NCBI GenBank assembly: GCA_964611345.1
Contig: CAZSYU010000004.1
Span: 17,620 to 81,619 of the forward strand
Direction of reading: 5' to 3'
DNA from: an uncultured Pseudomonadales bacterium
GTDB lineage: Bacteria; Pseudomonadota; Gammaproteobacteria; Pseudomonadales; Azotimanducaceae
DNA length: 64,000 nt
Part shown: one piece after another, positions 27,623 to 46,836 of the stretch
How positions within the stretch are numbered: the first letter of the stretch is position 1
Layout of the letters: each line of letters opens with the position of its first letter
Notes under the pieces: model-generated
The model's database searches: none
Seen by the model: the letters and a program-made list of their open reading frames with translations, nothing else
Told to the model about the DNA's origin: nothing
Position numbers and translations under genes: made by a program

Positions 27623-27732
27623 GGACGCAGCCTGCCAAACCCCTCGGCGGGTCAGAAGCGGCTATTGACTGTTGGCCACGACAGACGGACGATCTGGTTC
27701 TTGGCAGCTAATGCCCCACCAAGTGTCGAGAA

Positions 27733-29097
27733 CTAGACCACACCGTAGGCGTGCATTGCGTCGGCTACCTTAACGAACCCACCGACATTGGCTCCGCCAA
27801 CATAATCCACCGCACGACCTCGCTTGGCAGCGCCATGTTCTACGCATTGTTCATGAATGCCGCGCATGATGTCTTGCAGACGACCATCCACCTCGTTAGC
27901 AGTCCAGTTGATACGCATCGCATTTTGGCTTTGTTCCAAACCGGATACGGCAACACCACCCGCGTTCGATGCTTTGGCGGGCGCATACAAGGATCCGTTG
28001 TCGCGAAAGAGATGCTGCGCCTCAAGAGTGCAAGGCATGTTAGCTCCTTCGGCAATTACATTTACGCCGTTGCGTATCATCTTCTTCGCATCCGCTGCAT
28101 CGAGCTCATTCTGAGTGGCGCAGGGAAACGCCATATCGGCTTTAACACCCCAGGGCCGCTTGCCGGCGTGAAACTTCGTTTTCTTGTAGACAGTGGTGTA
28201 TTCCTTGATTCGCCCACGCCGCGCGAATTTCAACTCTTTAAGGTAATCGAGCTTGTCCTGGTCAAAACCCTCTGGATCGTGAATGAAGCCGGTAGAATCG
28301 GATAGCGTTATGGCTCGAGCTCCAAGGTGCAGCAACTTTTCGGCACAAAAAATGGCGACGTTGCCTGAGCCACTCACTAGCGCTGTCTTGCCATCAAAGC
28401 CATCATCAATACGGTTCAGCATGTTTTCGACAAAATACACTACACCGTAGCCAGTCGCCTCGGTGCGCCCAAGGCTGCCTCCAAACGACAACCCTTTGCC
28501 CGTTAACACACCCGTAAACTCGTTACGCACACGCTTATACTGGCCAAACAGATAACTGATTTCGCGACCACCCACGCCTATGTCGCCAGCGGGTACGTCG
28601 GTATCCGCGCCTACGTGACGGCTAAGTTCCGTCATCATAGATTGACAGAACCGCATCACTTCGCGATCACTCTTACCCTTGGGATTGAAGTTACTGCCAC
28701 CCTTTCCACCTCCCATAGGCAAGCCAGTAAGTGCGTTTTTGAAGGTCTGCTCAAAGCCTAAAAACTTCAGAACACTTTGATTAACTGAAGGATGAAACCG
28801 CAAACCACCCTTGTAGGGTCCAATAGAATTATTGAACTGTACCCGCCAAGCACGATTGGTTCGAATCGTCCCATCATCGGCCTCCCAGCAAACACGAAAA
28901 ATTACAATACGATCCGGCTCAGTCATGCGCTCGAGGATGGACATATCGGCATAGTCTTTGTGTGTGGCCATATAAGGCATGACAGTTTCGGCGACTTCCT
29001 GCACAGCCTGATGAAACTCTGGCTCACCCGGATTTCGCTTCACGAGTCCGTTCATAAAATTATCAAGCGCTTTGCGCGTTGCCTTATTCATAATCAC
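27733..29097 (-). CDS. gdhA: NADP-specific glutamate dehydrogenase
   Basis: 454 aa with the ELFV dehydrogenase active-site motif LPMGGGKGGSNFNPKG. Confidence 0.95.
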   Translation of the reverse strand: MIMNKATRKALDNFMNGLVKRNPGEPEFHQAVQEVAETVMPYMATHKDYADMSILERMTEPDRIVIFRVCWEADDGTIRTNRAWRVQFNNSIGPYKGGLRFHPSVNQSVLKFLGFEQTFKNALTGLPMGGGKGGSNFNPKGKSDREVMRFCQSMMTELSRHVGADTDVPAGDIGVGGREISYLFGQYKRVRNEFTGVLTGKGLSFGGSLGRTEATGYGVVYFVENMLNRIDDGFDGKTALVSGSGNVAIFCAEKLLHLGARAITLSDSTGFIHDPEGFDQDKLDYLKELKFARRGRIKEYTTVYKKTKFHAGKRPWGVKADMAFPCATQNELDAADAKKMIRNGVNVIAEGANMPCTLEAQHLFRDNGSLYAPAKASNAGGVAVSGLEQSQNAMRINWTANEVDGRLQDIMRGIHEQCVEHGAAKRGRAVDYVGGANVGGFVKVADAMHAYGVV

Positions 29098-29179
29098 AAT
29101 CTCCCTGATTGTTGTTTACTGATTAATATTTTTTAGTTGTTAGAAAAGCGCACGTTGCCTTCCCACTGAACGCATAAAA

Positions 29180-30235
29180 CTAGAATGACCCGTTCAGATA
29201 GAACCAACCTGCTCCCGCTGCGGCAACAACCACCACAGCAATCAAGACCCAGCGCATAGCACCGCCACTGGACCCACTACCTGCCTTTCCTGACTTCGCC
29301 TTCCTTGCTTTATTCTTACCAGCTGCAGCAGCACTACCTGGCAGCAGCAAGAGGGCCTTGGTACCACCAAATTCGATTACATCTTTGGAATTTAGGAAGC
29401 GTTTCAGCACCGCTTCACCATTCACGCGTGTTTTATTTGTCGACATCTGGTCATGTACCGACCACTTCGCGCCGCGACGCACCAATTTAGCGTGAAAATC
29501 AGAAACGCTTGGGTCTTCCAACACGATAGACAGCTCATGCTTGGAGCCATTTTTGCCGATGTTCCAGAAATTTAGGTCGCCTTCGCTCTTGAGCGATATA
29601 GGTTGACCATCACCAGAATCTCCAAGTAATACGAGGGTTGGGTCGGTGAACTGCGCCGCGAGAGCATCCGCATCGATGGCAAACTGATCGTTGGCTTCAC
29701 CGGGTTTCAGGATGATTGTGCCGGGGCTATCGTTCTGCCAGGAGCGCGGCAGGTTTTTGTTAACAGCCATCATCATGGTTTGGCCCATGGCTGCATTAGC
29801 GATATCGCTGTCGTCAGGCTGCCCACTAGGAGCTGGCGCCGGTACCGCGGCGCGAACCACCGTTGCGCCTGGATCCATCGACGCCGCATCCACTGCCGGC
29901 GCAGCAGCACCTTCCGAATCTGACAACGTTAATGTGTGGGTGTCGAACCGTATCTCATCACCGCCGACTGCCATAGTGGGTCCGGTCAGACGCTGATGAT
30001 TGATAAAGGTACCATTGGTCGAACCCAAATCAGTTACCAGCACACCTTCCGCCGCGGGCGCTAAGGTTGCGTGATTGCTCGAAACTGTAGAATGCGCTAG
30101 CTGTAGCACTTCGTCGTAGGAGACGCCTTGATGTTCGGCAGACGGCGCCCGCCCAACAATCACTGTGGTATCAAACTCCAATACTGCTGTACCCGCGTCA
30201 TCGCTCAGGGCAAATCGATTACCTGAAAGGCTCAC
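29180..30235 (-). CDS. Tail-anchored protein with two FHA domains
   Basis: FHA1 is canonical (VGRAP ... VSSNHATL ... STNGTFIN). FHA2 is semi-canonical (IGKNG ... VSDFHAKL ... STNKTRVNG). There is a Lys-rich linker and a C-terminal TM (WVLIAVVVVAAAGAGWFYL). GTG start preceded by GGAGA. Confidence 0.8.
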   Translation of the reverse strand: MSLSGNRFALSDDAGTAVLEFDTTVIVGRAPSAEHQGVSYDEVLQLAHSTVSSNHATLAPAAEGVLVTDLGSTNGTFINHQRLTGPTMAVGGDEIRFDTHTLTLSDSEGAAAPAVDAASMDPGATVVRAAVPAPAPSGQPDDSDIANAAMGQTMMMAVNKNLPRSWQNDSPGTIILKPGEANDQFAIDADALAAQFTDPTLVLLGDSGDGQPISLKSEGDLNFWNIGKNGSKHELSIVLEDPSVSDFHAKLVRRGAKWSVHDQMSTNKTRVNGEAVLKRFLNSKDVIEFGGTKALLLLPGSAAAAGKNKARKAKSGKAGSGSSGGAMRWVLIAVVVVAAAGAGWFYLNGSF

Positions 30236-30272
30236 TGTATTTCTCCATTCGTTTCCAATTCATGAATATATG

Positions 30273-31349
30273 TCATAACAGCCAGTAAACGAGCGCCACC
30301 AAAATCGCCAGCGCCAATGATGCAATAAGCAACTCAACATCAAACCCCTTCATACCAGACTTGTCTTTACCCGCAGATGCCTTCATCTGCTCATCGTCAA
30401 CACCTGAGATATCTGCAGCATTACTGCTGGCAATAGGCAGCGCCGCCTTTTTGGGCAGCGCAATCGTTGTCGCCGCAGCCACTCTAGGCGCGGGCGCAAC
30501 ACCTTCGAAGTCATCATTGCCCAACGGTGCGGGTTCAGCAGCGTCGTCATTGAGCCGCTTGTGACCTTGACCCGGCATGCGCTCAAAACGTTCACGCAAC
30601 TGCTCGACGCTAAGTACCGGCTGTAGCACCTCAATATCTTTAATTCGCAGACATACCACGCTAATGTTATCGAGAGCTTCGCCCAACAGAGTTTCTGCAA
30701 TCAGCGCGCCCACTGCGTCGGTAGGCTCAGGATTCGCCAGCAGCAGGTCGCTGATTTGATCATCCCGCATCTCGTCGTGTAAGCCATCGCTACAAAGCAA
30801 GATCATGTCACCGTTGTCGAGATCCAGACTTAACTCGGCGGGCACTGGTTCAGGGTCAGCGATGCCCAGGGCTTGCACAAGTACGTGCTTCTGGGGGTGA
30901 CCAAACGCATCTGCAGGATCCACCACACCAGACTCTAGTAACTGCTCGAGCAGCGAATGATCCCGGGTCAGCCGAATCAGCTGTTGCTTTCGCCACAGGT
31001 AAACACGGCTGTCGCCGCACCACCCGATTTCAGCTTTACTGCCCTTGATCCGCACCACAACAACAGTGCTGCCCATGTTTTCTGCGGAGCGACGCAGGCC
31101 CTCTGCAACAACCGCCGTATGGGCATCGAAAATCATCGCAGGTAACGCCGGTAGCTCAGAGTGGTCCATAACTGCGGCACTTCCTTGCAACAAGGATTGC
31201 TTAACAATCCGCGAGGCCACATCTCCACACGCATGGCCACCCATACCATCTGCCACCAGCCACACACCGGCGTCTTCAACCCAACCCAACGAATCCTCGT
31301 TGTGCTGGTAACGATTTCCCGGGTGCGACTCGGCAGCAAATTCAATCAC
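30273..31349 (-). CDS. Tail-anchored PP2C-family Ser/Thr protein phosphatase
   Basis: Motifs NEDS, VADGMGGHACGDVAS and LLCSDGLHD, with a C-terminal TM (LLIASLALAILVALVYWLL). Start placed at GTG 31349, 11 nt after the upstream stop. The track ORF extends to 31430. Confidence 0.85.
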   Translation of the reverse strand: MIEFAAESHPGNRYQHNEDSLGWVEDAGVWLVADGMGGHACGDVASRIVKQSLLQGSAAVMDHSELPALPAMIFDAHTAVVAEGLRRSAENMGSTVVVVRIKGSKAEIGWCGDSRVYLWRKQQLIRLTRDHSLLEQLLESGVVDPADAFGHPQKHVLVQALGIADPEPVPAELSLDLDNGDMILLCSDGLHDEMRDDQISDLLLANPEPTDAVGALIAETLLGEALDNISVVCLRIKDIEVLQPVLSVEQLRERFERMPGQGHKRLNDDAAEPAPLGNDDFEGVAPAPRVAAATTIALPKKAALPIASSNAADISGVDDEQMKASAGKDKSGMKGFDVELLIASLALAILVALVYWLL

Positions 31350-31359
31350 TAAACAACAC

Positions 31360-32709
31360 TCAAAAACTCCCCTGAACGGCCGCGGCAGCACGTTGGTAGG
31401 CTTTGGGCCGAAAGGTCTCATCATTGCCAAGACCAGAAAAGAGTCGGTCTAGCGAACTTGCGAGCTGGTCTGCCTCGCCGAGATATTCTGTCAACGTAAC
31501 AATGCTGAGCAGACCCTGTTCTGCTGTACCGTAGTCGACCATACGCCGAGACGCTGCCTGGCCAATCAGCCGCTTGCGTAACGCCCGCACCTTGGCGGTG
31601 CTCACATTTTGCACTTGCCACAGCGCTGACAGCTCATCGATGAGGCTTTGCAGTTGTGTGACTGAAGTGCCAAGTGCCCTGGGGTCACCCTGACCTGCAA
31701 CTACCAGTGCATCGATCGCCCGCTTCAATGCAGCTGTTTTATCTGGAGAAAGCTCTTCACTAATTAACTGTAGCGTACGAAAATGATGATCCGCCAGGCG
31801 TAAGCTGCCAGGCTCAACGCCCTGCTGCCGGCGCTCCTGATACCAGCGCAAGTCCTCCGGATCGAGCCCATGATGACAACTCTGACAGTCAAACATCGAA
31901 AACTCTGGGATAAACTTGGCGCCAGTAAAATAGTCACTACCTAACATTTTCAGAAACGCTCGAGATCCTTCCACCTGCCCGGTGAGCCACAACTGCACGC
32001 CCGCAAAGTTGCCCTTACGCTCTTTATAATCATCATCAACCGAAAAGTGCGGCGGCTGATTGGTCGTGAAATTCTCGAGTTCAAAACTCAACCTGGGATG
32101 GCCCGCGCCCATTATGCGGTGTGTGGTGAACTTATCCTGTGTGCCCAGATGACAACTCAAGCACAACTGCGCTCGCGCCGCTGGCTCCTCTGATGGGTAG
32201 AGGCCATTGGCGATATTATCGGCATGGGTATTGCCTGGATCATCATGGGTTTTAATCCAGTTTTCTGAACCGCCGTGGCACGCCTCGCAACCGACTCCAT
32301 CGTTCAGACTGAACTCCGGGCCACGTTTGTCCTGAGGGACATTGTCAGCATGACAATCCAAACAAATATCTGCGGTATGAGCACTGGCTAAGCCAAGTTT
32401 CGTCGCCATCAACTTGGATTCTGGTGACAACAAGGTCTTGTAGGCACGCGAATGGTAGTCCTGCGCTCGCCATATGCGATGCTCATTCAACCATACGGTG
32501 CGGTTGTCCTGACGACTCGATTTGCCGTGACACGCCCCTCCAGCACAGGACGACGCGCCATAGTGAATATTATCGTCAATGGTGGATACGTCAGCCGAGA
32601 CACTCATACCACACATAAGAATGGCACCAGCACAAATCCACAACGCCACATCACGAGCGGCCTGCCACTTGCTTTGGTATCGGTATTGGCACTGGTATCC
32701 ACCCTTCAC
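31360..32709 (-). CDS. Periplasmic multiheme c-type cytochrome (4x CXXCH + 1x CX4CH) with a helical C-terminal domain
   Basis: Signal-peptide-like N-terminus (ALWICAGAILMCGMSVSA). Motifs CAGGACH, CLDCH, CEACH, CLSCH and CQSCH. The GTG start shares 1 nt with the upstream TAG. Confidence 0.8.
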   Translation of the reverse strand: MKGGYQCQYRYQSKWQAARDVALWICAGAILMCGMSVSADVSTIDDNIHYGASSCAGGACHGKSSRQDNRTVWLNEHRIWRAQDYHSRAYKTLLSPESKLMATKLGLASAHTADICLDCHADNVPQDKRGPEFSLNDGVGCEACHGGSENWIKTHDDPGNTHADNIANGLYPSEEPAARAQLCLSCHLGTQDKFTTHRIMGAGHPRLSFELENFTTNQPPHFSVDDDYKERKGNFAGVQLWLTGQVEGSRAFLKMLGSDYFTGAKFIPEFSMFDCQSCHHGLDPEDLRWYQERRQQGVEPGSLRLADHHFRTLQLISEELSPDKTAALKRAIDALVVAGQGDPRALGTSVTQLQSLIDELSALWQVQNVSTAKVRALRKRLIGQAASRRMVDYGTAEQGLLSIVTLTEYLGEADQLASSLDRLFSGLGNDETFRPKAYQRAAAAVQGSF

Positions 32710-35700
32710 TATCTGGAACCCCCAGCACTAGTTGCGGTTGGCGTGGGTGCTTGTTCTGCGATAGCTTCATTACTGTCACCACCGCCAGCGCTACGCCCAC
32801 GTACGGCTGTACCAGTGCCTTCTGTATCCTGCACAAACCAGGGCTCGCCCGATTCATTGAGGTACAGCTTGTTCATGTCTTCACGGGAGAGTGGTCGAGA
32901 ACCACGGCGCCCAAACACCGCAATCTGTCCACCGGTTTCGTCTACACCCCGATCCCGATCAAGCCCTTTTGATAGTGCCAGTGCTGGCCGCTTGGTGGGA
33001 TAACTCGCGATTAGTTTGGGGTTTGGCTCGGGGCTAAAGCCATAGAAGTTCGGCTGCAGGGAGGGCGACGTCAACTGCACAACTTTCAACCCACCCGCGC
33101 CATCGGCAACGTAGGCAAATAGCGAAGCATTGGTGCTCGCTACGACAACATCATGTGCGTCGACAATCTTGCCACCATCGTTGTAGGTCTGGAGCAGGCG
33201 CATATTGTCGGGTTGAGTGACATCTACCACTGCGAGACCTTGTGCTCCTGCGGCAACATAGGCATAGGTTCGCGCCACGTACACGCGCTTGGCATCACTC
33301 AACGTAATCGTCGACGCTGATAATTTCGGTGCTTTGTTATTGGTGACATCAACGGTCTGCAATCCGTCTGCCGTCGTTACAAACAAATAGCGGAATTGCA
33401 GCGCCGTCGCTCGAGGGTCGCTCATGGGTATGCGGCTCACCAATTGCGGCTCCAGCGGATTCTGCAAAGACACCACCAATACTTCCGTTGGTAACGTCAG
33501 ATAGGCAATAGACCCCCCCAGTGTGATGTGACGAACACCATTTAGCAGACCGTCTGGGTTCCAGGTGAGTGCCCGGCTGAGGTTATTGTTGCGCAGCTCG
33601 CCGTCTTGCAGTGTATTAACGTCAACCAGAATCAAACCTTCTTGGGCATCTGTGATCACCGCGTAGTTGTAAATTGGATGGAAGGGCTGCTCCTGATTGG
33701 TGATACGCATCAGATCGCCTTCGTTCTTAAACGGTGCAATAGGTTGCGTAGACGGCAGCGCCATGCAGGTAGCGTTCTTCGACTTCACCTGTGTACCCTG
33801 ACCGAGCGGACTGAACGGCGTTGTCACAATGCGCTGCGAAAAGCCCTTGTTCGCAACGTTGGCAATGTCATAAACGCGCATTCCGTTTTTACCTTCGGCA
33901 ACGTACAAGTACTCGCCGCGCATTTGTAGACAGTTTGCAGGACCCGAACGATGCCCATACGCATGCTTCAGTACCCCGCCACGCGCTTCATGCTGCGCAA
34001 AGAAATCAGGGTAGGCGTACTTTTGCAGGTAACTGCCAATCACCGCCTGGGGCTCTTCCCACTCGGTTACTTGCACCGCAGAGACCTCGCCATCACCACC
34101 AACCCAGGCGTTATAGCCAACGAAGTTAACGAAGTTGGTTCCGAACATAAGTAGCTGGGCCATAATCGCGTTGTTATCGTTCTGTTCCGACAGATGACAA
34201 TCGCTGCAATTCTTGGTCTCTGATAATCGCACAGTGTGCGGGAAGTGAGGATTGAAGGCCTGCGAACTGAAACCTGAAGCGGCAACCGGTGGTTGCTGAA
34301 TATAGATTTTCTCACGGTTAGCATTTGTCGATGACAGTACCAACGCCGAGGTAGAGCGCACTGGCGCTATCTTGCCACCCTTGGCCGGACCCCTTCGTCC
34401 AAGCAGAAACATCTGATCCCGGGCAACCTGGGGGTTATAGCTGGCAAAGTTTCGACTCTTGCCCCCTTCATAGTGGTGTCGTTCGGTTTTCTTGTTCGCC
34501 TCAATGGGCAAGTGACAACCACCGCAGCTCGTTGTCCAGGACGTATGACAGGTGTAGCACTCCATTTCATCATAGGAATGGGCCAGATCAACACTGGCAA
34601 CCTGATTACCCCACTCCTGTGTTTCGGTGTTGTTAGACATGGTTTTGGCGCGCGCTGCCTTCGAGTTGTAATCCGAGTGTTTCGGATCGACCGCGTTCTT
34701 TACCAGACTGACTTTCCACTCAAGATTTTCATCGAGTGCTGAGCGCTGGTAGAGATCCCCGTTCACCCACTCGAAGCGAGGCCGCCCACCAGGCACCCGA
34801 AGCGACAGAAAATCTGTTCCGCCACCAATCGCAGCTGGTCCGGAGGCGTAGAGATTGGGCAGCTCTTTTGAGGTGCCGTGGCAGTCTTTGCAATCAACCT
34901 CAACAGCAAGTGCTACTTCTCCCTGAATGTGGCCGTTGCCGTGGTTGTCCTGGGCAAAGTGGCAATCAACACAGTGCATCCCCACATCCAGGTGAATCGA
35001 CGACATATGTACCGCCTTGTCGAATTTCTTGGGATCGTCGTTTTCAACCACGTTGTTCTTCGCATCGAGCAGATTACCCGTGCGATCACGTTTGAATACG
35101 GCTCGAAAGTTCCAGCCATGACCGTGATAGTCGGCGAACTGGGTATCATTTAATTCCGGATTCAGCTCAGATACTGCCTCCAGAAAATCCGTGTCCGCCC
35201 ATTTGCCACGGGGCGCTGCTCCTTCCGGATTGCGCTCCAACACTTCATGAATCTCTTCGCTGGTCGGATATTGTTGCTGCTCCGGCCACATCGCAGGCGC
35301 GTCCGATTCGTAGTCCCACATGGTGTAGCCCAGGTAACTGTTCACAAACATGTTCGGCTGGTGCATATGACAAATCATGCATTGTGATGTGGGTATCGCA
35401 TTGGTAAAGCTGTGCTTGATGGGATGCCCTGATTCGTTTTTTGGAATGGTCGGATCAAGCGTTGCGGTTTTACCAGTGTGGCCATGCTGGGCGTAACCGC
35501 CTGAATGTCGCGGATCACGGTCGTTGGCATACACAACGTGACAGGATGCGCAGCCAGAATTGCGATAATCACCCGGTTGATCGTTAGTGCCCATAAACCA
35601 GGTAAAAGGGTCATTCAGACGTGTTTTAGTGATATTGATTACGGGGACAGAAATGCGCGCACCCGTTGCCGGGCCACGGTTTGATTGACGAATATCAGGT

Positions 35701-36638
35701 CGACCCGGTTCCTCCAGACGTTGCACCAAGCCTAAGGAGTTGGGTATAGCCGTTTCCGGGAACAGGTTAATGATGTTGCGGCCGCCGCGCTCAAACACTC
35801 GAAACACATCACCGGGCTTGGTCGTTTCCCAGGCTGGCAAAGGCAACAGTTGCGGCAAAATACCTTTCTCATCTTTCAGCTGCTCCGCGAGCACCGTATC
35901 TAGCACCGGGCCTTTCAACACCGCTGGCTTACCGTCGGTGGTGTAAGATTCACCCAATATGTACTGCTTGAACGGCAAGATGCCGTTGTTGTAGGCCGCA
36001 CCGCCCCAAAGCATGGCGCCTGTGGCGTGCAACGACCGGACAGATTTCTCAATCTGATCCTGGTGACATGAACCACACGCCAGCTCAACGACACGATAGT
36101 CAGAAGGATTCACAAAACGCACAAACTCGCGGCTTTCTTTATTTAGCAGCGTGTACGTGCGCTCCGGATTGGCAGAATGCGGGTAGTGCCAAGCGTCAGG
36201 GTACTCCGGCAGTATGTGTGCCAACTCCTTAACCGCAATGTACTCATCCGACTGGTTGCCTTTAGGCAGACCATGACCGCCTTCGCCACCACTCTTGGCA
36301 TTACGCGGCACAAACTGACTGGCATCACCGCCGTGGCAATCGGTACAACCCAGATCCACGCCCGGCGCGTTGTGCATGGTTTTTTGATCAGATTCGGTAT
36401 GGCAAGATACGCAACCCGCACTCTTTTCACTGGCAGCAATAGCGCTTGGCTGATTTGCCGGGGCCGCAGGTGCCATGACGTAGTTACGCTCTACTTTTAT
36501 TACTGCCTCAGAAGCTTCAACCCCTTCGCTCCATATAGTACTGAAAACAAAGCCAGCACCGGTCACGCCAGCTGCTAACAAACTCAACGAAACCAGTAAG
36601 CCGCGCAACTTCTCAATTTTTCGCATCGAATTGTTCAT
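32709..36638 (-). CDS. Decaheme c-type cytochrome fused to a C-terminal LVIVD-like beta-propeller
   Basis: N-terminal signal/anchor helix. Ten CXXCH motifs between about nt 36416 and 34193, including a paired CYTCHTSWTTSCGGCH. The C-terminal ~350 aa (about nt 33940-32900) has repeated GMRVYDI, GLILVDVN, GLAVVDVT and GLKVVQLT strands. ATG 36638 is preceded by GAGGAG. Confidence 0.8.
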   Translation of the reverse strand: MNNSMRKIEKLRGLLVSLSLLAAGVTGAGFVFSTIWSEGVEASEAVIKVERNYVMAPAAPANQPSAIAASEKSAGCVSCHTESDQKTMHNAPGVDLGCTDCHGGDASQFVPRNAKSGGEGGHGLPKGNQSDEYIAVKELAHILPEYPDAWHYPHSANPERTYTLLNKESREFVRFVNPSDYRVVELACGSCHQDQIEKSVRSLHATGAMLWGGAAYNNGILPFKQYILGESYTTDGKPAVLKGPVLDTVLAEQLKDEKGILPQLLPLPAWETTKPGDVFRVFERGGRNIINLFPETAIPNSLGLVQRLEEPGRPDIRQSNRGPATGARISVPVINITKTRLNDPFTWFMGTNDQPGDYRNSGCASCHVVYANDRDPRHSGGYAQHGHTGKTATLDPTIPKNESGHPIKHSFTNAIPTSQCMICHMHQPNMFVNSYLGYTMWDYESDAPAMWPEQQQYPTSEEIHEVLERNPEGAAPRGKWADTDFLEAVSELNPELNDTQFADYHGHGWNFRAVFKRDRTGNLLDAKNNVVENDDPKKFDKAVHMSSIHLDVGMHCVDCHFAQDNHGNGHIQGEVALAVEVDCKDCHGTSKELPNLYASGPAAIGGGTDFLSLRVPGGRPRFEWVNGDLYQRSALDENLEWKVSLVKNAVDPKHSDYNSKAARAKTMSNNTETQEWGNQVASVDLAHSYDEMECYTCHTSWTTSCGGCHLPIEANKKTERHHYEGGKSRNFASYNPQVARDQMFLLGRRGPAKGGKIAPVRSTSALVLSSTNANREKIYIQQPPVAASGFSSQAFNPHFPHTVRLSETKNCSDCHLSEQNDNNAIMAQLLMFGTNFVNFVGYNAWVGGDGEVSAVQVTEWEEPQAVIGSYLQKYAYPDFFAQHEARGGVLKHAYGHRSGPANCLQMRGEYLYVAEGKNGMRVYDIANVANKGFSQRIVTTPFSPLGQGTQVKSKNATCMALPSTQPIAPFKNEGDLMRITNQEQPFHPIYNYAVITDAQEGLILVDVNTLQDGELRNNNLSRALTWNPDGLLNGVRHITLGGSIAYLTLPTEVLVVSLQNPLEPQLVSRIPMSDPRATALQFRYLFVTTADGLQTVDVTNNKAPKLSASTITLSDAKRVYVARTYAYVAAGAQGLAVVDVTQPDNMRLLQTYNDGGKIVDAHDVVVASTNASLFAYVADGAGGLKVVQLTSPSLQPNFYGFSPEPNPKLIASYPTKRPALALSKGLDRDRGVDETGGQIAVFGRRGSRPLSREDMNKLYLNESGEPWFVQDTEGTGTAVRGRSAGGGDSNEAIAEQAPTPTATSAGGSR

Positions 36639-36649
36639 CCCTGAGCTCC

Positions 36650-38629
36650 TCAAAACGCCAACACAAGGTTCATCTGGAAATAACCTGCTTCTTCATCCGG
36701 AAACAAATCCTTGAACCCCTTACCGGGAATCAGATGCGCATAGCTGGTGCGCACTACAATGTTCTGGGTTACCAGTGGTCGCCAGATTAGACTCAAGGAC
36801 AGGTCATGGCCGATCTCTTCGTCGATCGAGCCCTGGTTACGCACTGTTTCGAGCACCTGGGTGTGATCAAAGCGCATATAGTTGTAGTTGAAGCTCAATC
36901 GCAGTGATGGCAGGAGATCTGCATCGGCACCAATTCCAGCGAGTATCATCCCTGGATTGGTGAAGTTTGACTGGCCCTGTTCCTTGGACGATCGTAGATT
37001 GTTTAGCAGCCCATTCCGGGTAGACAAAGCAACGCGCCCCCCGCCAATCAACGGCACCGATTGCCGCAGCCAATAGCTGGTGTCTGAACCCGCGAATACA
37101 GGATTTTCGAATATGGCATCAAAGCCGGTTGCCCGATCGTCGAACGGGTCTTTATCACCACTGCCGTAGAGCAATGACCCACGAAGGCGCAACCAATCCA
37201 TATCAAAGCCGGCTTCAGCGGCAAAGAATCCAGCCCTGATATCAACCTTCCTCTCTTCGAACACACCCGGTTCAACGCTGCCTATCGCATAGTACGCAGA
37301 AGTTGTCAGATTAAGCCGACCAAAGTGGCCATCACCGTTGTAACCGAAGTACACCACATCGTATTTACGTGGCCGTTCGTCGCCAATGGAGGCGGGGCGA
37401 GCAATAAACTCGTTGTTGTCGAAGAAAAATTCATTGTCTTCCCGGTTACGGTTGTAAACAACGGTCGCCTGCGACACAAAACCAAGTTTCGGGAAGTCTT
37501 GCCAATAGAAGTTGGCTGCCACGACGTCGTCTTTGCGTAAATCTCGGGTAACGTCGTTCAACCCACTGTTAGTGTCCTTCTCGAGACGCCGGAAGTACGC
37601 AAGGTTGTACTGGAAGATGTTGTTATTGCGGTTACCAAACAGACGAACCCCTAGCTGGCTGTCCTGAAAAAGAAAGCCACGAAAATCGCTGTTAAACGGC
37701 TGAATACCAATTCGAAAACTGTCGAAATCGTATCGATCGCCTACGTTACGCAAGTGTCGATCATAGAACGCTGCCTGAATACCCAAGTGATGGTCAGTTC
37801 GTGACGTACCTCGGCTTGGTCGGGCGTTTACACCCTGAATCTCATCGAGATTTACATAGTTGATGCTCAGCACCGGCGTAAACCGAAACTCATGATCGGG
37901 AGGGCGAAACACCGTGTCGCCTTTCAGATACACAAATTCTGCAGCAAGATTTTGGTTAAAGAAGATTTGATCGGAAGTGCCAAAAATGTCGATGCCCCCG
38001 GGATCGTTAGTCGAGGACGCGCCCACAGGTGTCGGCACTTCGCGCACTTCCAATATACTGTCTGACAGCGCGTTAATGGAAAAGAACCATTCGTCGTCAT
38101 TGACGGGAATATCGCCCTTCAATACGTTGCGATTGTAGGGATCCCACCACGGATACTGATAACGAACCGAGTCATTGCCCACAACACCCCGGAACCCATC
38201 CAGGTTATCAACAATACGCCAGCGATCAGGCATGGCGAGCGTCACACAGTTCTGTGCACCCCCTTTGCAGTCTAGCGTCGGCGCCGCTGCCACACACTCG
38301 CTGCGGCCGGAACTGACGCAGGGCACTTTGGAAGGCGTATTTCTGCCACGTATCAGGCCATAGTCGAATACATTTTCTTCCCCGGCCGCACGCGCGGTCG
38401 AGCCTTCTACTCGATCGGCAGCGTTTTCTGCATCAGGACGCGGACACTCTACGCGTATGTAACCGGGTCGACGTCGATTGACTATGCGACCGCGATCGTC
38501 TGCGTAACAGACTTCAGCGGCTTCAACAGGCAGCGCGGACAGCATCAAGATCACCGTACCACCGGTGACACTGGCACCCAGCACGACCGCACATGACAGA
38601 GCTGCAGACAGTAATGATAGAACTTTCAT
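36650..38629 (-). CDS. Putative large outer-membrane beta-barrel (porin-like) protein with a Cys-rich N-terminal extension
   Basis: Signal peptide (MKVLSLLSAALSCAVVLGA...). Six Cys in the first ~100 mature residues. Long alternating aromatic/hydrophilic strands follow, with a C-terminal ...QMNLVLAF ending in Phe as in OMPs. The ATG directly abuts the upstream TAG. Confidence 0.6.
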   Translation of the reverse strand: MKVLSLLSAALSCAVVLGASVTGGTVILMLSALPVEAAEVCYADDRGRIVNRRRPGYIRVECPRPDAENAADRVEGSTARAAGEENVFDYGLIRGRNTPSKVPCVSSGRSECVAAAPTLDCKGGAQNCVTLAMPDRWRIVDNLDGFRGVVGNDSVRYQYPWWDPYNRNVLKGDIPVNDDEWFFSINALSDSILEVREVPTPVGASSTNDPGGIDIFGTSDQIFFNQNLAAEFVYLKGDTVFRPPDHEFRFTPVLSINYVNLDEIQGVNARPSRGTSRTDHHLGIQAAFYDRHLRNVGDRYDFDSFRIGIQPFNSDFRGFLFQDSQLGVRLFGNRNNNIFQYNLAYFRRLEKDTNSGLNDVTRDLRKDDVVAANFYWQDFPKLGFVSQATVVYNRNREDNEFFFDNNEFIARPASIGDERPRKYDVVYFGYNGDGHFGRLNLTTSAYYAIGSVEPGVFEERKVDIRAGFFAAEAGFDMDWLRLRGSLLYGSGDKDPFDDRATGFDAIFENPVFAGSDTSYWLRQSVPLIGGGRVALSTRNGLLNNLRSSKEQGQSNFTNPGMILAGIGADADLLPSLRLSFNYNYMRFDHTQVLETVRNQGSIDEEIGHDLSLSLIWRPLVTQNIVVRTSYAHLIPGKGFKDLFPDEEAGYFQMNLVLAF

Positions 38630-40822
38630 CTATAAGCCCTCGCAAGGTCGTTGAATGGAGGGATCAAACGAACCACCTTCCAGGAACGGCGATTGCGGAC
38701 ACTGGATGTAACGCAAGCGCGTATCGCGAGGCATGAGCTGGTCCGCACGTATTTCGGGTGGCGCGTTGTTTATGCTGCCCGTCTCAAGACCAGCCTCATG
38801 CAAGCCCAAAAACGAGATCATGTCGTCCTGATCTACGCCGTCACCGGATACGCCGATGCCACCTATGAGCATGTTGCCGCGATAGATAGGCACGCTGCCC
38901 GGAAAAATCTGAAAGCCATTAGCTACCCTGTTAGTCATCGCGGCCGGGCTGATAGATACCAGCCCGAGATCGATGAGCCCAGGCGTCGAGGTGCCCGGAT
39001 TAAACCCGGCACCGGCACACCCCTGGACCACATCTGGCGCGAGCGCCCCATCGGTGACGGAGAACAGCACATGTTGCACCAGAGCGTTAATCGCCAGATC
39101 GAGCTGCAAACCCGTCGAGAAAGGGCTCCACTCACCAGCTGGCTTGCTCAGTGGGCCAGCGCCTCGCTCATCAATACCATCAGGAAAAAATGGCCGCGAC
39201 AAATTGCCACCGGCTCGATCAGAAAACGCAAACGCGCCATTGGCCAGAGCCAGCGGATCTTCGAGGAAGTTACGCAGGTCGGTGACGTAATCACCGAGCG
39301 ACAGAACTTGAAACAACTCCGGGCCAGCATCTGTAAATCCAACATAATTAGTGGGCGGCAGAGCGTTCAAAAAGTCTGCGCTACTGGCGCTGGAAAAAAA
39401 TGCGGCGGTTCGTGCTTTTTGTAAGGAGACGTCCGCACCAAACACTGGAGCATCGCGAGTACGCACCATTCCCAGTATTTCACCATTGGTATCAACAACA
39501 GAGATAGTGACCCGGGCCGGTGAATTCAACGGCCGGCGAATCTGTGCACGCGCACTATTGGCTACCCTTAAGGCGTTACTCAACAGGGACTGGGTTTCCG
39601 CTACCGTAAGCTGATTACCGCCAGTTTCAACGGCGTCAGTGCCGGGTCGTGCCGGAAACCGATTGACATTGGCAGCGTTTACAAAAACAAACGCATCCTG
39701 ACCATCAAACCCACTTACCGCCGGCCTGATACCTGACGCTGGCGTACCGAAGGCCGTGCCGGCGCGAATGGTCCCGTCAAAATAGCCGGTAACATTAACA
39801 AGTGCACCCGTCGCGGTTGAGAACGCAGGCGCGTTGGCCGGATCACTCATCAGGTCTTCGACACCTGCATCACTGAAGCGAAAAGTCTTGCCATCTACGG
39901 TAATTCGATTGGCACGACGGTCGAGGGGCGCAGACCAACCGAAAGACGCAGCGACCGCAATCAGTTCGTCGATGTCTGTATCAATGTCACCAATGGCCGG
40001 GTCTATGCCATAGCGACCGTCCGCAATGACGCCCACGCCACCTACGGGCACACCGTTGCGATACAAAGGCAGGCCACCTGGATCAGCAGCCAAACCCAAT
40101 GGTGAACGATGGGGTCCTGGTTCTGCGGCTCCGCCACTAAAACGCTGTGAAAAGTCCGAACAGGAAAGCTGCGAAAACTGCACGCCAAACAGTGGTCCGG
40201 CCGGCTGGTTTAGCTCGCCGGGGTTAAAGTGCTCTTGCACGATCTGATTCGCGGTGCGAGTAGTAAACGCATTACCTTCACTCGATAGATAAGCGCCTGT
40301 TATAGCCTTAGCGATGGCACCAAGCTGGTCGATATTAAAGGGCACGGCTGCTGTAGGGAGCCGCAATCCCTCGAGGCCACCACTAATCAGCGGCGTCCCA
40401 TCGTCTGCCGTGGCAGTTGCAACCAGCATGGATCGATCCGCAGGATCACCCATGCGGAACACACCAAGCACATTACCCACCCGATCCGTTACCGCAATGG
40501 TGGCCTGGACATTTCGCGCCTGTGCCTCAGCCACACCTTGAGCGATGATTGTTTCTACATCAGCAACAGAGAGCGATTCGGGTACCGTTGTGCCGCACTC
40601 ACCAGAGCATGCCGGATCGGGACCGGTTACTCCTAGGGGTTCTTCCCGACCACCGCCGCCACAGCCACTAAATTGCGCAAGCACGAATACTGCGGCCGCA
40701 ATTTTTAGTTTCAGCGACGGTTTGTAACGGTCATTCCGTTTAAAGCGTTCATAACGTTTATAGGTTTCTTTGACAAAACCATGGCCCACACTCTGACCCT
40801 CTACCATCTTGGTTGCGTTCAT
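38630..40822 (-). CDS. Lipoprotein with two GlcG/HbpS-like (DUF336, heme-binding/degrading fold) modules
   Basis: Lipobox LAQFSGC. Module 1 has ATIAVTDRVGNVLGVFRMGD ... GGLPLYRNGVPVGGVGVIADG. Module 2 has VTISVVDTNGEILGMVRTRDAPVFGADVSLQKARTAAFF ... GSVPIYRGNMLIGGIGVSGDGVDQDD. The ATG overlaps the upstream TGA (ATGA) and is preceded by AGGAGG. Confidence 0.65.
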   Translation of the reverse strand: MNATKMVEGQSVGHGFVKETYKRYERFKRNDRYKPSLKLKIAAAVFVLAQFSGCGGGGREEPLGVTGPDPACSGECGTTVPESLSVADVETIIAQGVAEAQARNVQATIAVTDRVGNVLGVFRMGDPADRSMLVATATADDGTPLISGGLEGLRLPTAAVPFNIDQLGAIAKAITGAYLSSEGNAFTTRTANQIVQEHFNPGELNQPAGPLFGVQFSQLSCSDFSQRFSGGAAEPGPHRSPLGLAADPGGLPLYRNGVPVGGVGVIADGRYGIDPAIGDIDTDIDELIAVAASFGWSAPLDRRANRITVDGKTFRFSDAGVEDLMSDPANAPAFSTATGALVNVTGYFDGTIRAGTAFGTPASGIRPAVSGFDGQDAFVFVNAANVNRFPARPGTDAVETGGNQLTVAETQSLLSNALRVANSARAQIRRPLNSPARVTISVVDTNGEILGMVRTRDAPVFGADVSLQKARTAAFFSSASSADFLNALPPTNYVGFTDAGPELFQVLSLGDYVTDLRNFLEDPLALANGAFAFSDRAGGNLSRPFFPDGIDERGAGPLSKPAGEWSPFSTGLQLDLAINALVQHVLFSVTDGALAPDVVQGCAGAGFNPGTSTPGLIDLGLVSISPAAMTNRVANGFQIFPGSVPIYRGNMLIGGIGVSGDGVDQDDMISFLGLHEAGLETGSINNAPPEIRADQLMPRDTRLRYIQCPQSPFLEGGSFDPSIQRPCEGL

Positions 40823-42663
40823 TCCTTTCCACCTCCTGAGTCACCACCGGCGACTCTCCCCGCGTTGGTCGCCCACTGTTGCGCGCTTGCTTGCCCACCT
40901 AGTAAGGGTGCTCCATCAAAGCCCGCAAAGTTCCGCGGGTGATACGCGTGACAATCTATGCACGCCAATGCCACCTGAGATACACTATCGCGATCGCCAT
41001 GGCACTCATAACAGGTGGCCATCGTTGGCATAAGCAGATCGGTCGCACTGGCAGAATTCTTGGCGGCGTGACAGGTATCGCAGGCCTGATCACCCACCAA
41101 CAGCTCGCTACTTTCGCCATCACGCAACACCTGATGAGCGATATGATCGAATCGCGCATCGGGCACAAAATCCTGTGGCAGCTTCACTGGATGCACCCAG
41201 AACTGGTCTTCGATATCCTTCGAATCCTGGCGTTCAAACTGATGACACGCAGCACAGCCGATATCACCGGCAAACTGAGCTTCGACGATCTCTTTTAGTT
41301 CACGCTCCACACAGACGTCTGGCGCGTCAGTACAACCGGCCACTCGATCCGGACGATCTGGCAAACGGCGATAGGCAAACAGCTCACCCGTGTCATCAGG
41401 ATCGAAGTATTTTTTCAGTAACATGCCTTCAAGCGCCAACACCGCTTCTTTTAAACGCGCATGTGGCAAGCTCCGATCAGGGTCGGACTCATCAAAATCA
41501 AGTTGGTGACAATCCTGGCAATGCGCTTCCATGCTGACTGGCAAGAAATGTTCGCCGTCGATGCTCATGCTGTGGCAGGTTCCGCAAGTGAGAGCTTCAC
41601 CGGTTACTAAATCTGACACTTCGCCAACATCCAGATGAATATCGTGAGGAAACACAAGTTCCGAAGTTTCTGGCGAATTCGCTATCTCAGTTTCGCTGAC
41701 CGCTTCGATCCGCCATCCATCATCTTTCGATCCGGCAAACTCCTCGAGCGTGAAGCGCGGTAGCGAGTATTCGTAAACCGGATGGGTTTCTGGAGTGAAG
41801 CCCGTCACTGCTGCTAACGGATCTATATCGCGATGAATGCCACCACCAGAGTCAGTGCCTGCTGCGTGGCATTGCACACAGTCACCATCGGCGTCGCGAA
41901 CTAAAGTGCTCGGCTCGTTGTGCTCCCGATGACAGACGCCACAACGCTCATTTGCATTGGCACCGAAGTCGAGCCCGCCAGACCCAAGTTCGCCAGGCAC
42001 GGAGGTCGCGGCTAAAAACGCGCTGCTGACATGATCTTGAATTGAACCGTGGCACGCCTCACAAGCCTCGTTTTGAACACGTTCGAAGGGTTTGCCGTGA
42101 CAACCGGCACAATTTTCGCCCGTGACCAACTCATGCGCGGCATGCAGCTCACCAGACGTCCATACATGATCTGAAAAGAGCCCACTAACCGGCGCCTGGG
42201 TGGCGCGTTCGCCGGAAAACAGAAAGGGCACAATAAACATACCCAGTAACACAACCAGTGCACCAATCCATGCGAACGCACGTTTCGCTAAAAACGTATC
42301 AGCCAAGCTGAGTTTTTGTGTTGACAACACCGAAACATGATCTGCTGCACGACGCACTATCAACATGCCGTCAAAACCACCCGGCGCTTCTTCTACATGC
42401 ACGCTAGCACCAGGTAGCTCTATGAGATCGCCGGATCGCAAAACACAGCGCTTAACCACATTGCCGTTAACCTGCACACCATCACGAGTGGTGCTGCGCA
42501 AGACTAGCCCTTCTCGTCCCAGCTCAATACTCGCGTGGCGCAGTTCAAGCAGCGGTAGTTGCAGGTGCGCATCGTTAGCAGACCCGAGAATAACGCGATC
42601 AATCCCGTGTTCTTGGTCTATGTGGCCGCCTGCTTCCCTGGCGATGCGTATCAAGAGGTCCAT
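40819..42663 (-). CDS. FHA-like domain / single TM / periplasmic decaheme c-type cytochrome fusion protein
   Basis: The N-terminal ~100 aa are FHA-like (RVILGS...LRHASIEL...TRDGVQVNGNVV...GDLIELPG). One TM (AFAWIGALVVLLGMFIVPFLF). Then ten CXXCH motifs (CAGCH, CEACH, CGVCH, CVQCH, CGTCH, CQDCH, CAACH, CDTCH, CYECH, CIDCH). ATG 42663 lies 4 nt after the upstream TAA. The track ORF starts at 42693. Confidence 0.8.
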   Translation of the reverse strand: MDLLIRIAREAGGHIDQEHGIDRVILGSANDAHLQLPLLELRHASIELGREGLVLRSTTRDGVQVNGNVVKRCVLRSGDLIELPGASVHVEEAPGGFDGMLIVRRAADHVSVLSTQKLSLADTFLAKRAFAWIGALVVLLGMFIVPFLFSGERATQAPVSGLFSDHVWTSGELHAAHELVTGENCAGCHGKPFERVQNEACEACHGSIQDHVSSAFLAATSVPGELGSGGLDFGANANERCGVCHREHNEPSTLVRDADGDCVQCHAAGTDSGGGIHRDIDPLAAVTGFTPETHPVYEYSLPRFTLEEFAGSKDDGWRIEAVSETEIANSPETSELVFPHDIHLDVGEVSDLVTGEALTCGTCHSMSIDGEHFLPVSMEAHCQDCHQLDFDESDPDRSLPHARLKEAVLALEGMLLKKYFDPDDTGELFAYRRLPDRPDRVAGCTDAPDVCVERELKEIVEAQFAGDIGCAACHQFERQDSKDIEDQFWVHPVKLPQDFVPDARFDHIAHQVLRDGESSELLVGDQACDTCHAAKNSASATDLLMPTMATCYECHGDRDSVSQVALACIDCHAYHPRNFAGFDGAPLLGGQASAQQWATNAGRVAGGDSGGGKE

Positions 42664-42667
42664 AGGC

Positions 42668-43543
42668 TTACCAGTACCAAAACACGACGACAATATGGAT
42701 AACGAGAGCGAACAAAACAGCTATGGAAAGCGGCACATGAATATACAACCAGGCCTGCAACAAGCCCTGCATTTGCACATCCCGACGCACGCGCCGCAAC
42801 AAATCCTGACGGCGCGCAGTGAGGGACATCAGATGGCGCAACGCTGTTGTTTCTTTTCCATCGCTCGCTTGCGTTGCAGCCTCCGATAGAAAGCGCAACA
42901 GATTACGTTGATCAAAATTGCTGCGGTGCTGATTGCCTTCAGAGCTGGCTTCCTGGAACGTAGATCGATCGCTGCCCAGCAGCTGCCGGAGAAAACCACC
43001 TCCGACTCGGGTTTGGTCCAAGGCCGAGCGCACTGTATTGTTTATATCGTCAGAGCAATCCGCCGCTCGCTCGAGGCTCGCCAGCTCAAGACTTTCCAAC
43101 TCTTCAATATTCTCTGCTCGACTGCGCGTTTTACGCACCGACGATAATCGTCGCGGCAGCGAGAGGTAGACAAACATGCCAAACACGCCGCTGGCGATCA
43201 CCGCCATCATTAACCAGAAGAACAGCGAATGAATGTTCCAGCCGAGTTGCCCAGCGCTATGGAACAGGCTTACCCCGATGAGTGCAGTACCCAGATAAAC
43301 GTGCGCACTTACCCAACCTTTTAGCGACCCACCTCGCCCATAGCGGCGCTTGCGCACTCCCAGATAGTTCAACCAAAAGATGAGCAATCCAGCAATGATG
43401 CCAAGCGTCAGTCCTTGCCAGGTACCGCCACTAGGTGGAGTCGTTGCGTCTTGCAGCCAATACAGTCCAAAGCTGATCGCAAGCAATCCAAGCGCTACCC
43501 ACAGATACCGACCGCCTGCATGTTGCAACGCGTTCTGACTCAT
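42668..43543 (-). CDS. Five-TM inner-membrane protein with two His pairs (candidate di-heme b electron carrier)
   Basis: Four N-terminal TMs, a ~130-aa hydrophilic loop and a C-terminal TM. His81/His95 lie on TM3 and His269/His283 on TM5, each pair spaced i/i+14. The ATG overlaps the upstream TGA (ATGA). Confidence 0.55.
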   Translation of the reverse strand: MSQNALQHAGGRYLWVALGLLAISFGLYWLQDATTPPSGGTWQGLTLGIIAGLLIFWLNYLGVRKRRYGRGGSLKGWVSAHVYLGTALIGVSLFHSAGQLGWNIHSLFFWLMMAVIASGVFGMFVYLSLPRRLSSVRKTRSRAENIEELESLELASLERAADCSDDINNTVRSALDQTRVGGGFLRQLLGSDRSTFQEASSEGNQHRSNFDQRNLLRFLSEAATQASDGKETTALRHLMSLTARRQDLLRRVRRDVQMQGLLQAWLYIHVPLSIAVLFALVIHIVVVFWYW

Positions 43544-46086: not shown

Positions 46087-46092
46087 GGCCAA

Positions 46093-46212: not shown

Positions 46213-46836
46213 ATGGCTTTTTTCGACGAACTTAAACGCCGTAAAGTGTTTCGTGTCACCAGCCTCTACGCTGTGACTGCGTGGGGAGCATCCATGGGTG
46301 CGGCCGAACTCTTCCCCACCTTTGGCCTGCCCGATGAATCGGTGCGCTGGTTCGTTGTGGGTGCCTTCGGCTTGCTGCCAGTTGTCGCATTGCTTGCCTG
46401 GCTTTACGAACTGACACCCGGGGGTATCGAACGTGACGCCGCCGATTGTCCCGACACTACCACGCACCTGGCACCCCAGCGCGCCGCCAACGAGTTGACT
46501 GCGAGCTGGCGCGACAAAAACTGGACCTTTCAGAACACCTTCACCATCGGCCGCGATATCACCTGTGACTTGCATATCGACGATCCGAAAATATCGCGTC
46601 GCCATGCTCGGGTAGTCGCTCAACATCAGCATTGGTACCTCGAAGACCTGGGCAGCAGCAATGGCACCAGCGTCAACGGCGAACTCATTACGCGAACCAG
46701 TCTCTCGGGCTCGGCCAAAGTTACGCTTTACGAGGGCGGCGACGAGATCACCTTGAGCATCAAAGTTCCGGGTGGCGTCGCCACTGTGCTCGCAGACCCC
46801 CCTCCGAACAATGCGATCACCCAACGTGATACCTAA
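46213..46836 (+). CDS. Membrane-anchored FHA-domain protein
   Basis: N-terminus MAFFDELKRRKVFRV, then two TMs, then a canonical FHA domain (TIGRD ... ISRRHARV ... GSSNGTSVNG). Start at ATG 46213. The track ORF starts at 46135. Confidence 0.8.
   Translation: MAFFDELKRRKVFRVTSLYAVTAWGASMGAAELFPTFGLPDESVRWFVVGAFGLLPVVALLAWLYELTPGGIERDAADCPDTTTHLAPQRAANELTASWRDKNWTFQNTFTIGRDITCDLHIDDPKISRRHARVVAQHQHWYLEDLGSSNGTSVNGELITRTSLSGSAKVTLYEGGDEITLSIKVPGGVATVLADPPPNNAITQRDT

Follow-up and report, generated by a model that had tools for sequence, protein, structure and literature searches.

A signalling gene pair at the end of a porin-cytochrome operon

We analysed a 64,000-nucleotide stretch of DNA (the window) from an uncultured Pseudomonadales bacterium of the family Azotimanducaceae (assembly GCA_964611345.1, contig CAZSYU010000004.1, positions 17,620 to 81,619), in which nine tightly packed genes run along the minus strand from position 46092 to 29180. 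The first seven (31360..46092, minus strand), assigned by Pfam domains and counts of CXXCH motifs, form the core of a ptd-type porin-cytochrome conduit operon. The last two, which are our subject, encode a Ser/Thr phosphatase of the PP2C/PPM family and a protein with two forkhead-associated (FHA) domains. The initial annotation, made from the sequence without database searches, had read this pair and a kinase some 20 kb away as a phospho-switch dedicated to the conduit. It put the content of the locus at one kinase, one phosphatase and three proteins that together have four FHA or FHA-like domains, and that count is correct.

The phosphatase gene (30273..31349, minus strand; 358 amino acids) starts with a GTG at 31349, 10 nucleotides past the stop codon of the preceding c554-like cytochrome gene. 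A longer frame opening with a TTG at 31430 was rejected, as it overlaps the upstream cytochrome gene and finds no support in the orthologue alignment. The protein comprises a catalytic domain (residues 1-240), a variable linker and a C-terminal transmembrane (TM) helix of 19 hydrophobic residues (340-358; nucleotides 30276-30332). It exceeds the Pfam cut-offs for both PP2C (48.1 bits, cut-off 20.3) and PP2C_2 (47.2 bits, cut-off 24) but stays under that of the NCBIfam equivalog Stp1/IreP (171.6 bits, cut-off 230), and is thus a member of the PPM/PP2C family rather than this named equivalog. The motifs NED, ADGxGG, GDSR, DHS, LCSDG and DN are each kept in at least 90% of 38 orthologues; the metal-coordinating acidic residues within them (in NED, DGxGG, DG and DN) are present in the window protein and equally well kept. 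Judged by these motifs, the protein is an intact PPM enzyme with predicted phosphatase activity. Its C-terminal helix, already noted in the initial annotation, recurs in 35 of 39 orthologues, and two more have a weakly hydrophobic C terminus.

The tandem-FHA gene (29180..30235, minus strand; 351 amino acids) begins with a GTG at 30235, 37 nucleotides past the phosphatase stop codon, and has a GGAGA ribosome-binding site 6 nucleotides ahead of the start. Its product matches the Pfam FHA family in two stretches (96 bits). From the N terminus, it consists of FHA1 (nucleotides 29918-30214), a disordered linker, FHA2 (29342-29653) and a C-terminal TM helix (29192-29260). An AlphaFold2 model, run on an alignment of 39 sequences, agreed with this layout and with the earlier description of the protein: two FHA sandwiches predicted with a local confidence score (pLDDT) above 90, a disordered linker at residues 107-190 with pLDDT below 56, and a C-terminal helix at residues 326-348. 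The C-terminal TM helix is found in 40 of 41 orthologues. In both members of the pair, a C-terminal tail anchor is thus predicted to hold the protein at the inner membrane, on its cytoplasmic side.

The two FHA domains differ in how much of the phosphothreonine-binding site they retain

A Foldseek search with the tandem-FHA model returned, as top matches, the FHA domains of DgcB, GarA, FhaA and OdhI (target TM-scores of 0.8-0.9), the best structural neighbour being the DgcB FHA domain bound to its own phosphorylated tail. None of the NCBIfam equivalogs FhaB, OdhI, TagH, Stp1 and PknB reached its cut-off with the proteins of the locus. The best NCBIfam match of both FHA proteins, this one and a second, membrane-bound FHA protein described below, was FhaB/FipA (74.4 and 57.7 bits, cut-off 125), with OdhI at 50.7 bits (cut-off 200) and TagH at 30.3 bits (cut-off 120). 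Pfam also reports Yop-YscD_cpl for both.

Although the tandem-FHA proteins are only 25-35% identical across the clade that carries them, the residues of FHA1 that would contact phosphothreonine (G28, R29, S52, H55 and N74) are invariant in 39 sequences. By its residues FHA1 is a canonical phosphothreonine reader, and binding is predicted. In FHA2 the position of the contacting arginine is occupied by lysine in the window and by serine or arginine in orthologues, depending on the lineage, while S245 (the serine of S-x-x-H) and N267 are kept. FHA2 is thus degenerate, having kept the fold but not the canonical phosphate contacts.

An invariant threonine lies in an otherwise unalignable linker

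The segment between the two FHA domains is very variable in length and cannot be aligned, apart from two residues, W166 and T173, which are the only invariant ones. They belong to the motif P-x-[SA]-W-x6-11-T-x-hydrophobic-hydrophobic. Thr173 (codon at 29717..29719, minus strand) is present in 41 of 41 orthologues, as are a hydrophobic residue at +2 and one of I, L, M, V, F or Y at +3. FHA domains prefer phosphothreonine in the context pT-x-x-I/L/V, and because the surroundings of Thr173 match this preference, we predict that it is both a phospho-acceptor and an FHA ligand. A second predicted phospho-acceptor, Thr125 (codon at 29861..29863, minus strand), lies just after FHA1 in the motif D-x-x-[AK]-T-[VQ]-x-R and is present in 30 of the 41 orthologues.

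The pair is specific to the conduit cluster

To assess the conservation of the pair, we used the 1314-residue cytochrome of the operon as a query against a collection of species-representative genomes. This gave 490 stretches encoding a relative, from which 80 species-level loci were fetched. All window proteins were mapped onto these loci, 64 of which were informative in that they extended at least 2.8 kb downstream. The phosphatase and tandem-FHA genes directly follow the c554-like cytochrome gene in 38 of the 64, one of them (L037) with the two genes in reversed order; of the remainder, 23 lack both genes and three carry only the FHA gene. In a tree of the large cytochrome, all carriers fall within a single gammaproteobacterial clade of 53 sequences (SH-aLRT support of 98), with few losses. 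This clade spans Halieaceae, Cellvibrionaceae, Spongiibacteraceae, Steroidobacteraceae, Lysobacterales-type and other gammaproteobacterial metagenome-assembled genomes. Cultured carriers are Parahaliea maris HSLHS9, Halieaceae GM1-29 and Pseudoteredinibacter isoporae.

We also sampled 301 genomes spread evenly over the order to which the window belongs. An adjacent phosphatase and tandem-FHA pair was found in 12 of the 16 genomes that encode the large cytochrome and in 0 of the other 285 (Fisher's exact test, p = 2e-18). Given the 38 of 64 loci, the contrast in the order sample and the low identity of the FHA proteins, the pair is cluster-specific and has been retained at the same position through deep divergence. 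Thus, of the co-occurrence with cytochrome genes that the initial annotation had suggested examining, the part concerning phosphatase and FHA genes was borne out, whereas the kinase accompanies the cluster in only some genomes. Homologous clusters do not consistently lack these genes, yet the pair is limited to one clade.

A candidate kinase and its companions

The window contains one candidate writer, a bitopic Hanks-type Ser/Thr kinase (52561..54168, minus strand; 535 amino acids; Pfam Pkinase, 111 bits). It has N-terminal DDAT repeats (nucleotides 54118-54162), a kinase domain, one TM helix (residues 398-416), as had been described, and a periplasmic helical tail of about 120 residues. Its N terminus reads RDDATRLRDDATQVRDD. 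Most orthologues of this kinase repeat the Thr125-type motif of the tandem-FHA linker in their N-terminal tails, with two to four copies each; the tail from locus L081 has one strict match. In seven kinase tails, the pattern D-x-x-T, which was defined post hoc, gave 25 overlapping regular-expression matches at 17 distinct threonines, compared with about one in shuffled sequences.

On the same strand lie genes for a caspase-like (C14)/Sel1 membrane protein (50491-52437) and a Calx-beta autotransporter (46857-50459), both assigned by Pfam. A search covering 49 cluster-bearing genomes genome-wide and 12 fetched regions found the kinase, caspase-like and autotransporter genes as a tight trio in nine other genomes (L081-L087, L091 and L092). 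The trio adjoins the cluster in five cases: the window, L006, L084, L091 and L092, the last being the cultured Parahaliea maris HSLHS9. In four further genomes (L003, L012, L026 and L029) the true trio lies elsewhere, and the tandem-FHA gene is followed directly by a paralogous set comprising genes for an autotransporter, a kinase, a caspase-like protein and a membrane FHA protein. A trio or paralogous trio therefore adjoins the cluster in nine genomes, in differing arrangements, and this repeated adjacency argues for a functional link between the kinase set and the cluster. In the two closest relatives of the window, the trio lies on a different contig while the phosphatase and tandem-FHA genes remain behind the cytochrome gene. 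A defence-system reading of the kinase and caspase-like genes was considered and rejected, as PADLOC returned only generic kinase models and a weak caspase match (3e-4).

Divergent from the operon lies the gene for the membrane FHA protein mentioned above (46213..46836, plus strand; Pfam FHA, 66.7 bits), an N-terminal helical hairpin followed by a canonical FHA domain that carries the phosphothreonine-contacting residues in GR, SRRHA and SSNGT. Of the two N-terminal TM helices initially assigned to it, one is strongly hydrophobic. The other, which comes first, is weaker but conserved (Kyte-Doolittle value of 1.0 in the window and 1.4-1.8 in orthologues); a pair of TM helices is plausible, and two passages are topologically needed to leave the FHA domain in the cytoplasm, but the assignment is not firm. 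Orthologues adjoin the cluster in nine loci (L001, L002, L003, L005, L012, L017, L019, L026 and L029), and this protein is more faithful to the cluster than the kinase is.

The conduit operon and its cytochrome-borne FHA fold

The core operon opens with a flavo-FeS protein that combines Pyr_redox, two cyclic-nucleotide-binding (cNMP) and 4Fe-4S domains (43540-46092). It continues, all on the minus strand, with a multi-helix membrane protein (42668-43543), a decahaem cytochrome with ten CXXCH motifs (40819-42693), an HbpS-like lipoprotein (38630-40822), a putative porin of 659 amino acids that has no Pfam match and occupies the expected place of the porin (36650-38629), a decahaem cytochrome with LVIVD repeats (32709-36653) and the c554-like cytochrome, the last of the cytochrome genes (31360-32709). 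The core gene order is kept across the 80 loci (L001-L080), and the gene set matches the description of ptdABCDEFG, a putative porin-cytochrome operon that was named, with its function left uncharacterised, in work that found this type of cluster highly transcribed in oxygen-deficient waters (bioRxiv 10.1101/2023.11.21.568154). Three loci (L017, L042 and L049) are rearranged such that the flavo-FeS, membrane-protein and decahaem genes come after the tandem-FHA gene instead of before the lipoprotein gene, which places the phosphatase and tandem-FHA genes in the middle of the cluster. A scan of positions 27500-32000 found no promoter-like sites, and terminator-like sites only at chance level.

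The first decahaem cytochrome has one TM helix (residues 140-158), and the initial annotation had called the protein FHA-like. Pfam does not recognize its N-terminal 120 residues, but a profile built from 37 members of the family matches the FHA domains of Rv1747 (1.1e-8) and GarA (1.4e-8) in the Protein Data Bank, in keeping with that call. The domain (42337..42663, minus strand) is predicted to be cytoplasmic and is degenerate. In the alignment G-S replaces G-R in gammaproteobacteria and the serine of S-x-x-H is absent everywhere, so that the fold is retained while the phosphothreonine-contacting residues are not conserved. Alphaproteobacterial clusters retain the cytochrome FHA fold and lack the pair. 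In seven Arenicella-type loci (L035, L039, L040, L045, L051, L054 and L074) the decahaem cytochrome has no FHA fold and begins just before its TM helix; the pair is absent there as well.

Genomic surroundings

The 64 kb contain no type VI secretion system (T6SS), cell-division or sporulation genes, as had been stated; the neighbours are instead lipopolysaccharide core, GlnE, MshE-type ATPase, IlvD, HemE, glutamate dehydrogenase (GDH) and FabV-like genes. The gdhA-type GDH gene (27733-29097, minus strand) follows the tandem-FHA gene at a distance of 82 nucleotides, and the intervening sequence has no terminator-like site. GDH genes of about 60-92% identity recur beside the conduit in at least five arrangements, including in clades without the pair, and were seen in L001, L002, L005, L008, L012, L015, L018, L026, L035, L040, L051, L073, L084, L091, L129, L130 and L131. 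As a putative role, the enzyme could provide NAD(P)H for the flavo-FeS protein at the entry of the conduit.

Two genes downstream of the tandem-FHA gene lies a class III nucleotidyl cyclase (26327-27622, minus strand; 431 amino acids) with about five N-terminal membrane helices. The cyclase is shared with L001 and L002, and L028 and L131 give weaker matches. Together with the two cNMP domains on the first protein of the operon, it makes a second, membrane-anchored signalling input likely. Further away, an MshE-type ATPase of type II secretion or type IV pilus systems, with a c-di-GMP-binding MshEN domain (17734-19623, minus strand), is isolated between glnE and argE-like genes; no other genes for pili or secretion lie nearby.

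The genome as a whole has 12 Pkinase matches, 4 PP2C matches and 7 FHA domains, so the locus is not the sole holder of such genes, and the idea that the window kinase is the only kinase was discarded. Another tail-anchored PP2C, 54% identical to that of the operon, is encoded on contig C33 (18946-19920) and is followed by a 512-residue membrane protein. On contig C29 (16292-19640) another tail-anchored tandem-FHA protein, of 376 amino acids, is encoded directly downstream of a 745-residue Hanks kinase. Tail-anchored phospho-signalling parts are thus a recurrent design in this organism.

Comparison with known systems

The closest precedent in kind is the threonine phosphorylation pathway of the T6SS in Pseudomonas aeruginosa and Agrobacterium, made up of the kinase PpkA, the PP2C phosphatase PppA and the FHA scaffold Fha1/TagH. 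There, too, the genes for a bitopic membrane Hanks kinase, an eraser of the PP2C type and an FHA reader accompany those of an envelope-spanning machine in a proteobacterium, and in that pathway the three proteins switch the machine post-translationally. The window differs in having no T6SS genes, a reader with two FHA domains and a tail anchor, a tail-anchored phosphatase and a multihaem conduit as the machine, and the TagH score is far under its cut-off. Rv1747 of Mycobacterium tuberculosis shares with the tandem-FHA protein the arrangement of two FHA domains around a disordered linker of about 100 residues with acceptor threonines (predicted in our case) at the cytoplasmic face of a membrane machine, and its FHA domain is the best match of the cytochrome FHA profile. 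In Rv1747, however, the module is fused to an ATP-binding cassette transporter, whereas the module described here is a protein in its own right, with a tail anchor and a dedicated PP2C gene beside it, and its phosphorylation is predicted.

Bdellovibrio DgcB and actinobacterial GarA and OdhI, the top structural neighbours (6hc1, 6i2p, 7rj3 and 4qcj), resemble the tandem-FHA protein in using a conserved threonine, in a disordered segment of the same polypeptide, as FHA ligand. Unlike it, they are soluble single-FHA proteins with enzymatic or metabolic outputs and have neither a membrane anchor nor a link to cytochromes. The mycobacterial FhaA-FhaB-PstP-RodA-PbpA-PknA-PknB cluster also unites membrane-anchored FHA proteins, a membrane-anchored PP2C and bitopic Hanks kinases in one locus. 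PstP is not tail-anchored, however, the FhaB/FipA scores of the proteins described here are below the cut-off, and cell-wall and division genes are absent from this locus. By analogy, the module would work like the T6SS pathway and the self-reading switches of Rv1747, DgcB and GarA, while being a member of none of these systems.

On the side of the conduit, the same core set of multihaem cytochromes, porin, flavin/FeS/cNMP protein and membrane protein is found in the ptdABCDEFG operon (bioRxiv 10.1101/2023.11.21.568154) and in the FHA-nonahaem cluster 'NHC' of Ferrigenium straubiae (bioRxiv 10.64898/2026.01.22.701106). The NHC study notes a cytoplasmic FHA domain on the membrane cytochrome and states that an FHA-multihaem fusion had not been reported before (bioRxiv 10.64898/2026.01.22.701106). 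A phosphatase, a kinase and separate FHA proteins go unmentioned in both papers (bioRxiv 10.1101/2023.11.21.568154; bioRxiv 10.64898/2026.01.22.701106), and the ptdABCDEFG paper has no mention of FHA at all. The clusters described in both are of types without the pair. In a Gallionellaceae pangenome paper, a 'forkhead-associated protein, 10 haems' appears in a table only. Our search of the accessible literature found no paper that joins FHA, PP2C or kinase genes to porin-cytochrome clusters. What is new here, on genomic evidence, is the invariant Thr173 motif, the sharing of the Thr125 motif with the kinase tails, the contrast of a canonical FHA1 with a degenerate FHA2 and cytochrome FHA fold, and the attachment of signalling genes of a familiar kind to a machine of a new kind.

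Interpretation and alternatives

Collectively, these results lead us to favour, with some reserve, a reading in which the pair is the eraser and the reader or scaffold of a Ser/Thr phospho-relay and a fixed accessory of one gammaproteobacterial branch of ptd-type conduits. The phosphorylation itself, the binding partners and the effect on electron flow are the parts of this relay that we infer. In the mechanism that we propose, a membrane Hanks kinase, either the 535-residue kinase of the window or a paralogue, would autophosphorylate its N-terminal D-D-x-T repeats, which would recruit FHA1, and would then phosphorylate Thr125 and Thr173 of the tandem-FHA protein. FHA1 would read phosphorylated Thr173 either in cis, closing the protein as in GarA and OdhI, or in trans, by head-to-tail clustering as in Rv1747 or DgcB. 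This reading would alter what the degenerate FHA2 and the degenerate FHA fold of the cytochrome hold at the membrane. What would most likely respond is the way in which the soluble flavo-FeS donor docks on, or assembles with, the membrane protein and the decahaem cytochrome, so that electron entry into the conduit would be gated. The tail-anchored phosphatase would erase the marks and reset the switch. That the window kinase is the cognate writer of the pair is a tentative assignment to which we give somewhat less than even weight. The full scheme is more speculative and, in our estimate, rather unlikely to be correct. In it, a kinase that senses the surface or periplasm and works with the caspase-like protease and the autotransporter marks the invariant linker threonine, FHA-phosphothreonine contacts cluster the inner-membrane module or dock the flavo-FeS donor, the phosphatase resets the system, and threonine phosphorylation thereby switches an NAD(P)H-fed conduit on and off.

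Several observations weigh against a dedicated switch of this kind. The AlphaFold2 model does not dock the Thr173 motif on either FHA domain, and residues 172-184 have pLDDT values below 50. At E <= 1e-30, six pair-bearing genomes have no kinase like that of the window, and the source genome holds 12 Hanks kinases, the 54%-identical phosphatase paralogue and the second tandem-FHA protein. Among the three conduit proteins that face the cytoplasm (flavo-FeS protein, membrane protein and decahaem cytochrome), no threonine was found that is conserved specifically in the pair-bearing clade; the nearest to discriminating are T178 of the membrane protein (0.94 versus 0.65) and T444 of the flavo-FeS protein (0.97 versus 0.63). 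A possible output on the conduit is suggested by gene context only. Among the 28 sequences of the sister clade (Arenicella-type and alphaproteobacterial), none has the pair, and a 401-genome phylum sample added 12 more distant clusters that show neither the pair nor independent recruitment of a PP2C, kinase or FHA gene. The history of the pair therefore looks like roughly one gain followed by long retention and not like repeated independent recruitment. As the conduit occurs elsewhere without it, the pair is an add-on and not a core part. Of the phospho-switch proposed initially, then, the dedicated and long-retained accessory stands, while the window kinase as its cognate writer, a conduit protein as its substrate and the periplasmic domain of the kinase as its sensor remain putative.

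Other explanations accept the phospho-module but place its target elsewhere. The pair could act on carbon or nitrogen metabolism in the manner of GarA and OdhI, for example on the adjacent GDH, or on another envelope process, and merely ride at the end of the operon. The close downstream position of GDH with no terminator-like site before it, its recurrence as a neighbour of the cluster, the similarity of the FHA folds to those of GarA and OdhI and the failure to find a candidate phospho-site in conduit proteins all fit this idea. However, GDH also lies beside clusters without the pair (L035, L040, L051 and L129-L131), indicating that it tracks the conduit and not the FHA protein, which makes a metabolic target unlikely. 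The OdhI score also falls far short of its cut-off, the tail anchors put both proteins at the membrane, away from a soluble dehydrogenase, and the pair is absent from all 285 cluster-less genomes of the order sample; we regard this explanation as improbable. We judge it just as improbable that the pair is functionally part of the module of kinase, caspase-like protein and autotransporter, a surface or stress system of its own for which the conduit is just a frequent neighbour. In its favour, the kinase and caspase-like genes are tightly paired in the nine other genomes, the kinase tails and the FHA linker carry the same threonine motif, and in three cluster-less genomes (L102, L103 and L105) tandem-FHA paralogues lie directly upstream of caspase orthologues. 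Yet it is the cytochrome gene that the pair stays behind when the trio moves to another contig, as in the two closest relatives; in the order sample the pair occurs only beside the cluster, and in many genomes with the pair the kinase of the trio has no orthologue.

Less probable still is that the tandem-FHA protein is an assembly scaffold independent of phosphorylation, like the FHA folds of YscD and EscD in type III secretion systems, with the phosphatase unrelated in role or vestigial. The Yop-YscD_cpl matches of both FHA proteins point in this direction, as do FHA2 and the cytochrome FHA fold, which have no conserved phosphate-contacting arginine or serine. The five contact residues of FHA1 are nevertheless invariant, the catalytic motifs of the phosphatase are kept, and an invariant threonine in a pT-x-x-hydrophobic context would make little sense without phosphorylation. 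We therefore retain the eraser and reader of a phospho-relay as the preferred interpretation of the pair.

Implications for conduit control

To our knowledge, the known regulation of extracellular electron transfer is transcriptional or proceeds through second messengers. If the relay acts on the conduit as proposed, it would be the first known Ser/Thr phospho-switch on an extracellular-electron-transfer machine, and it would run in parallel to a cyclic-nucleotide input through the two cNMP domains of the donor and the nearby membrane cyclase. A phosphothreonine switch in a conduit operon would, if real, add a new layer of control to extracellular electron transfer, which is important for bioelectrochemistry and for the cycling of metals, nitrogen and carbon. 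Clusters of the ptd type are widespread, as the 490 stretches with relatives of the large cytochrome illustrate, and a dedicated regulatory pair would offer a handle on when this uncharacterised conduit is used.

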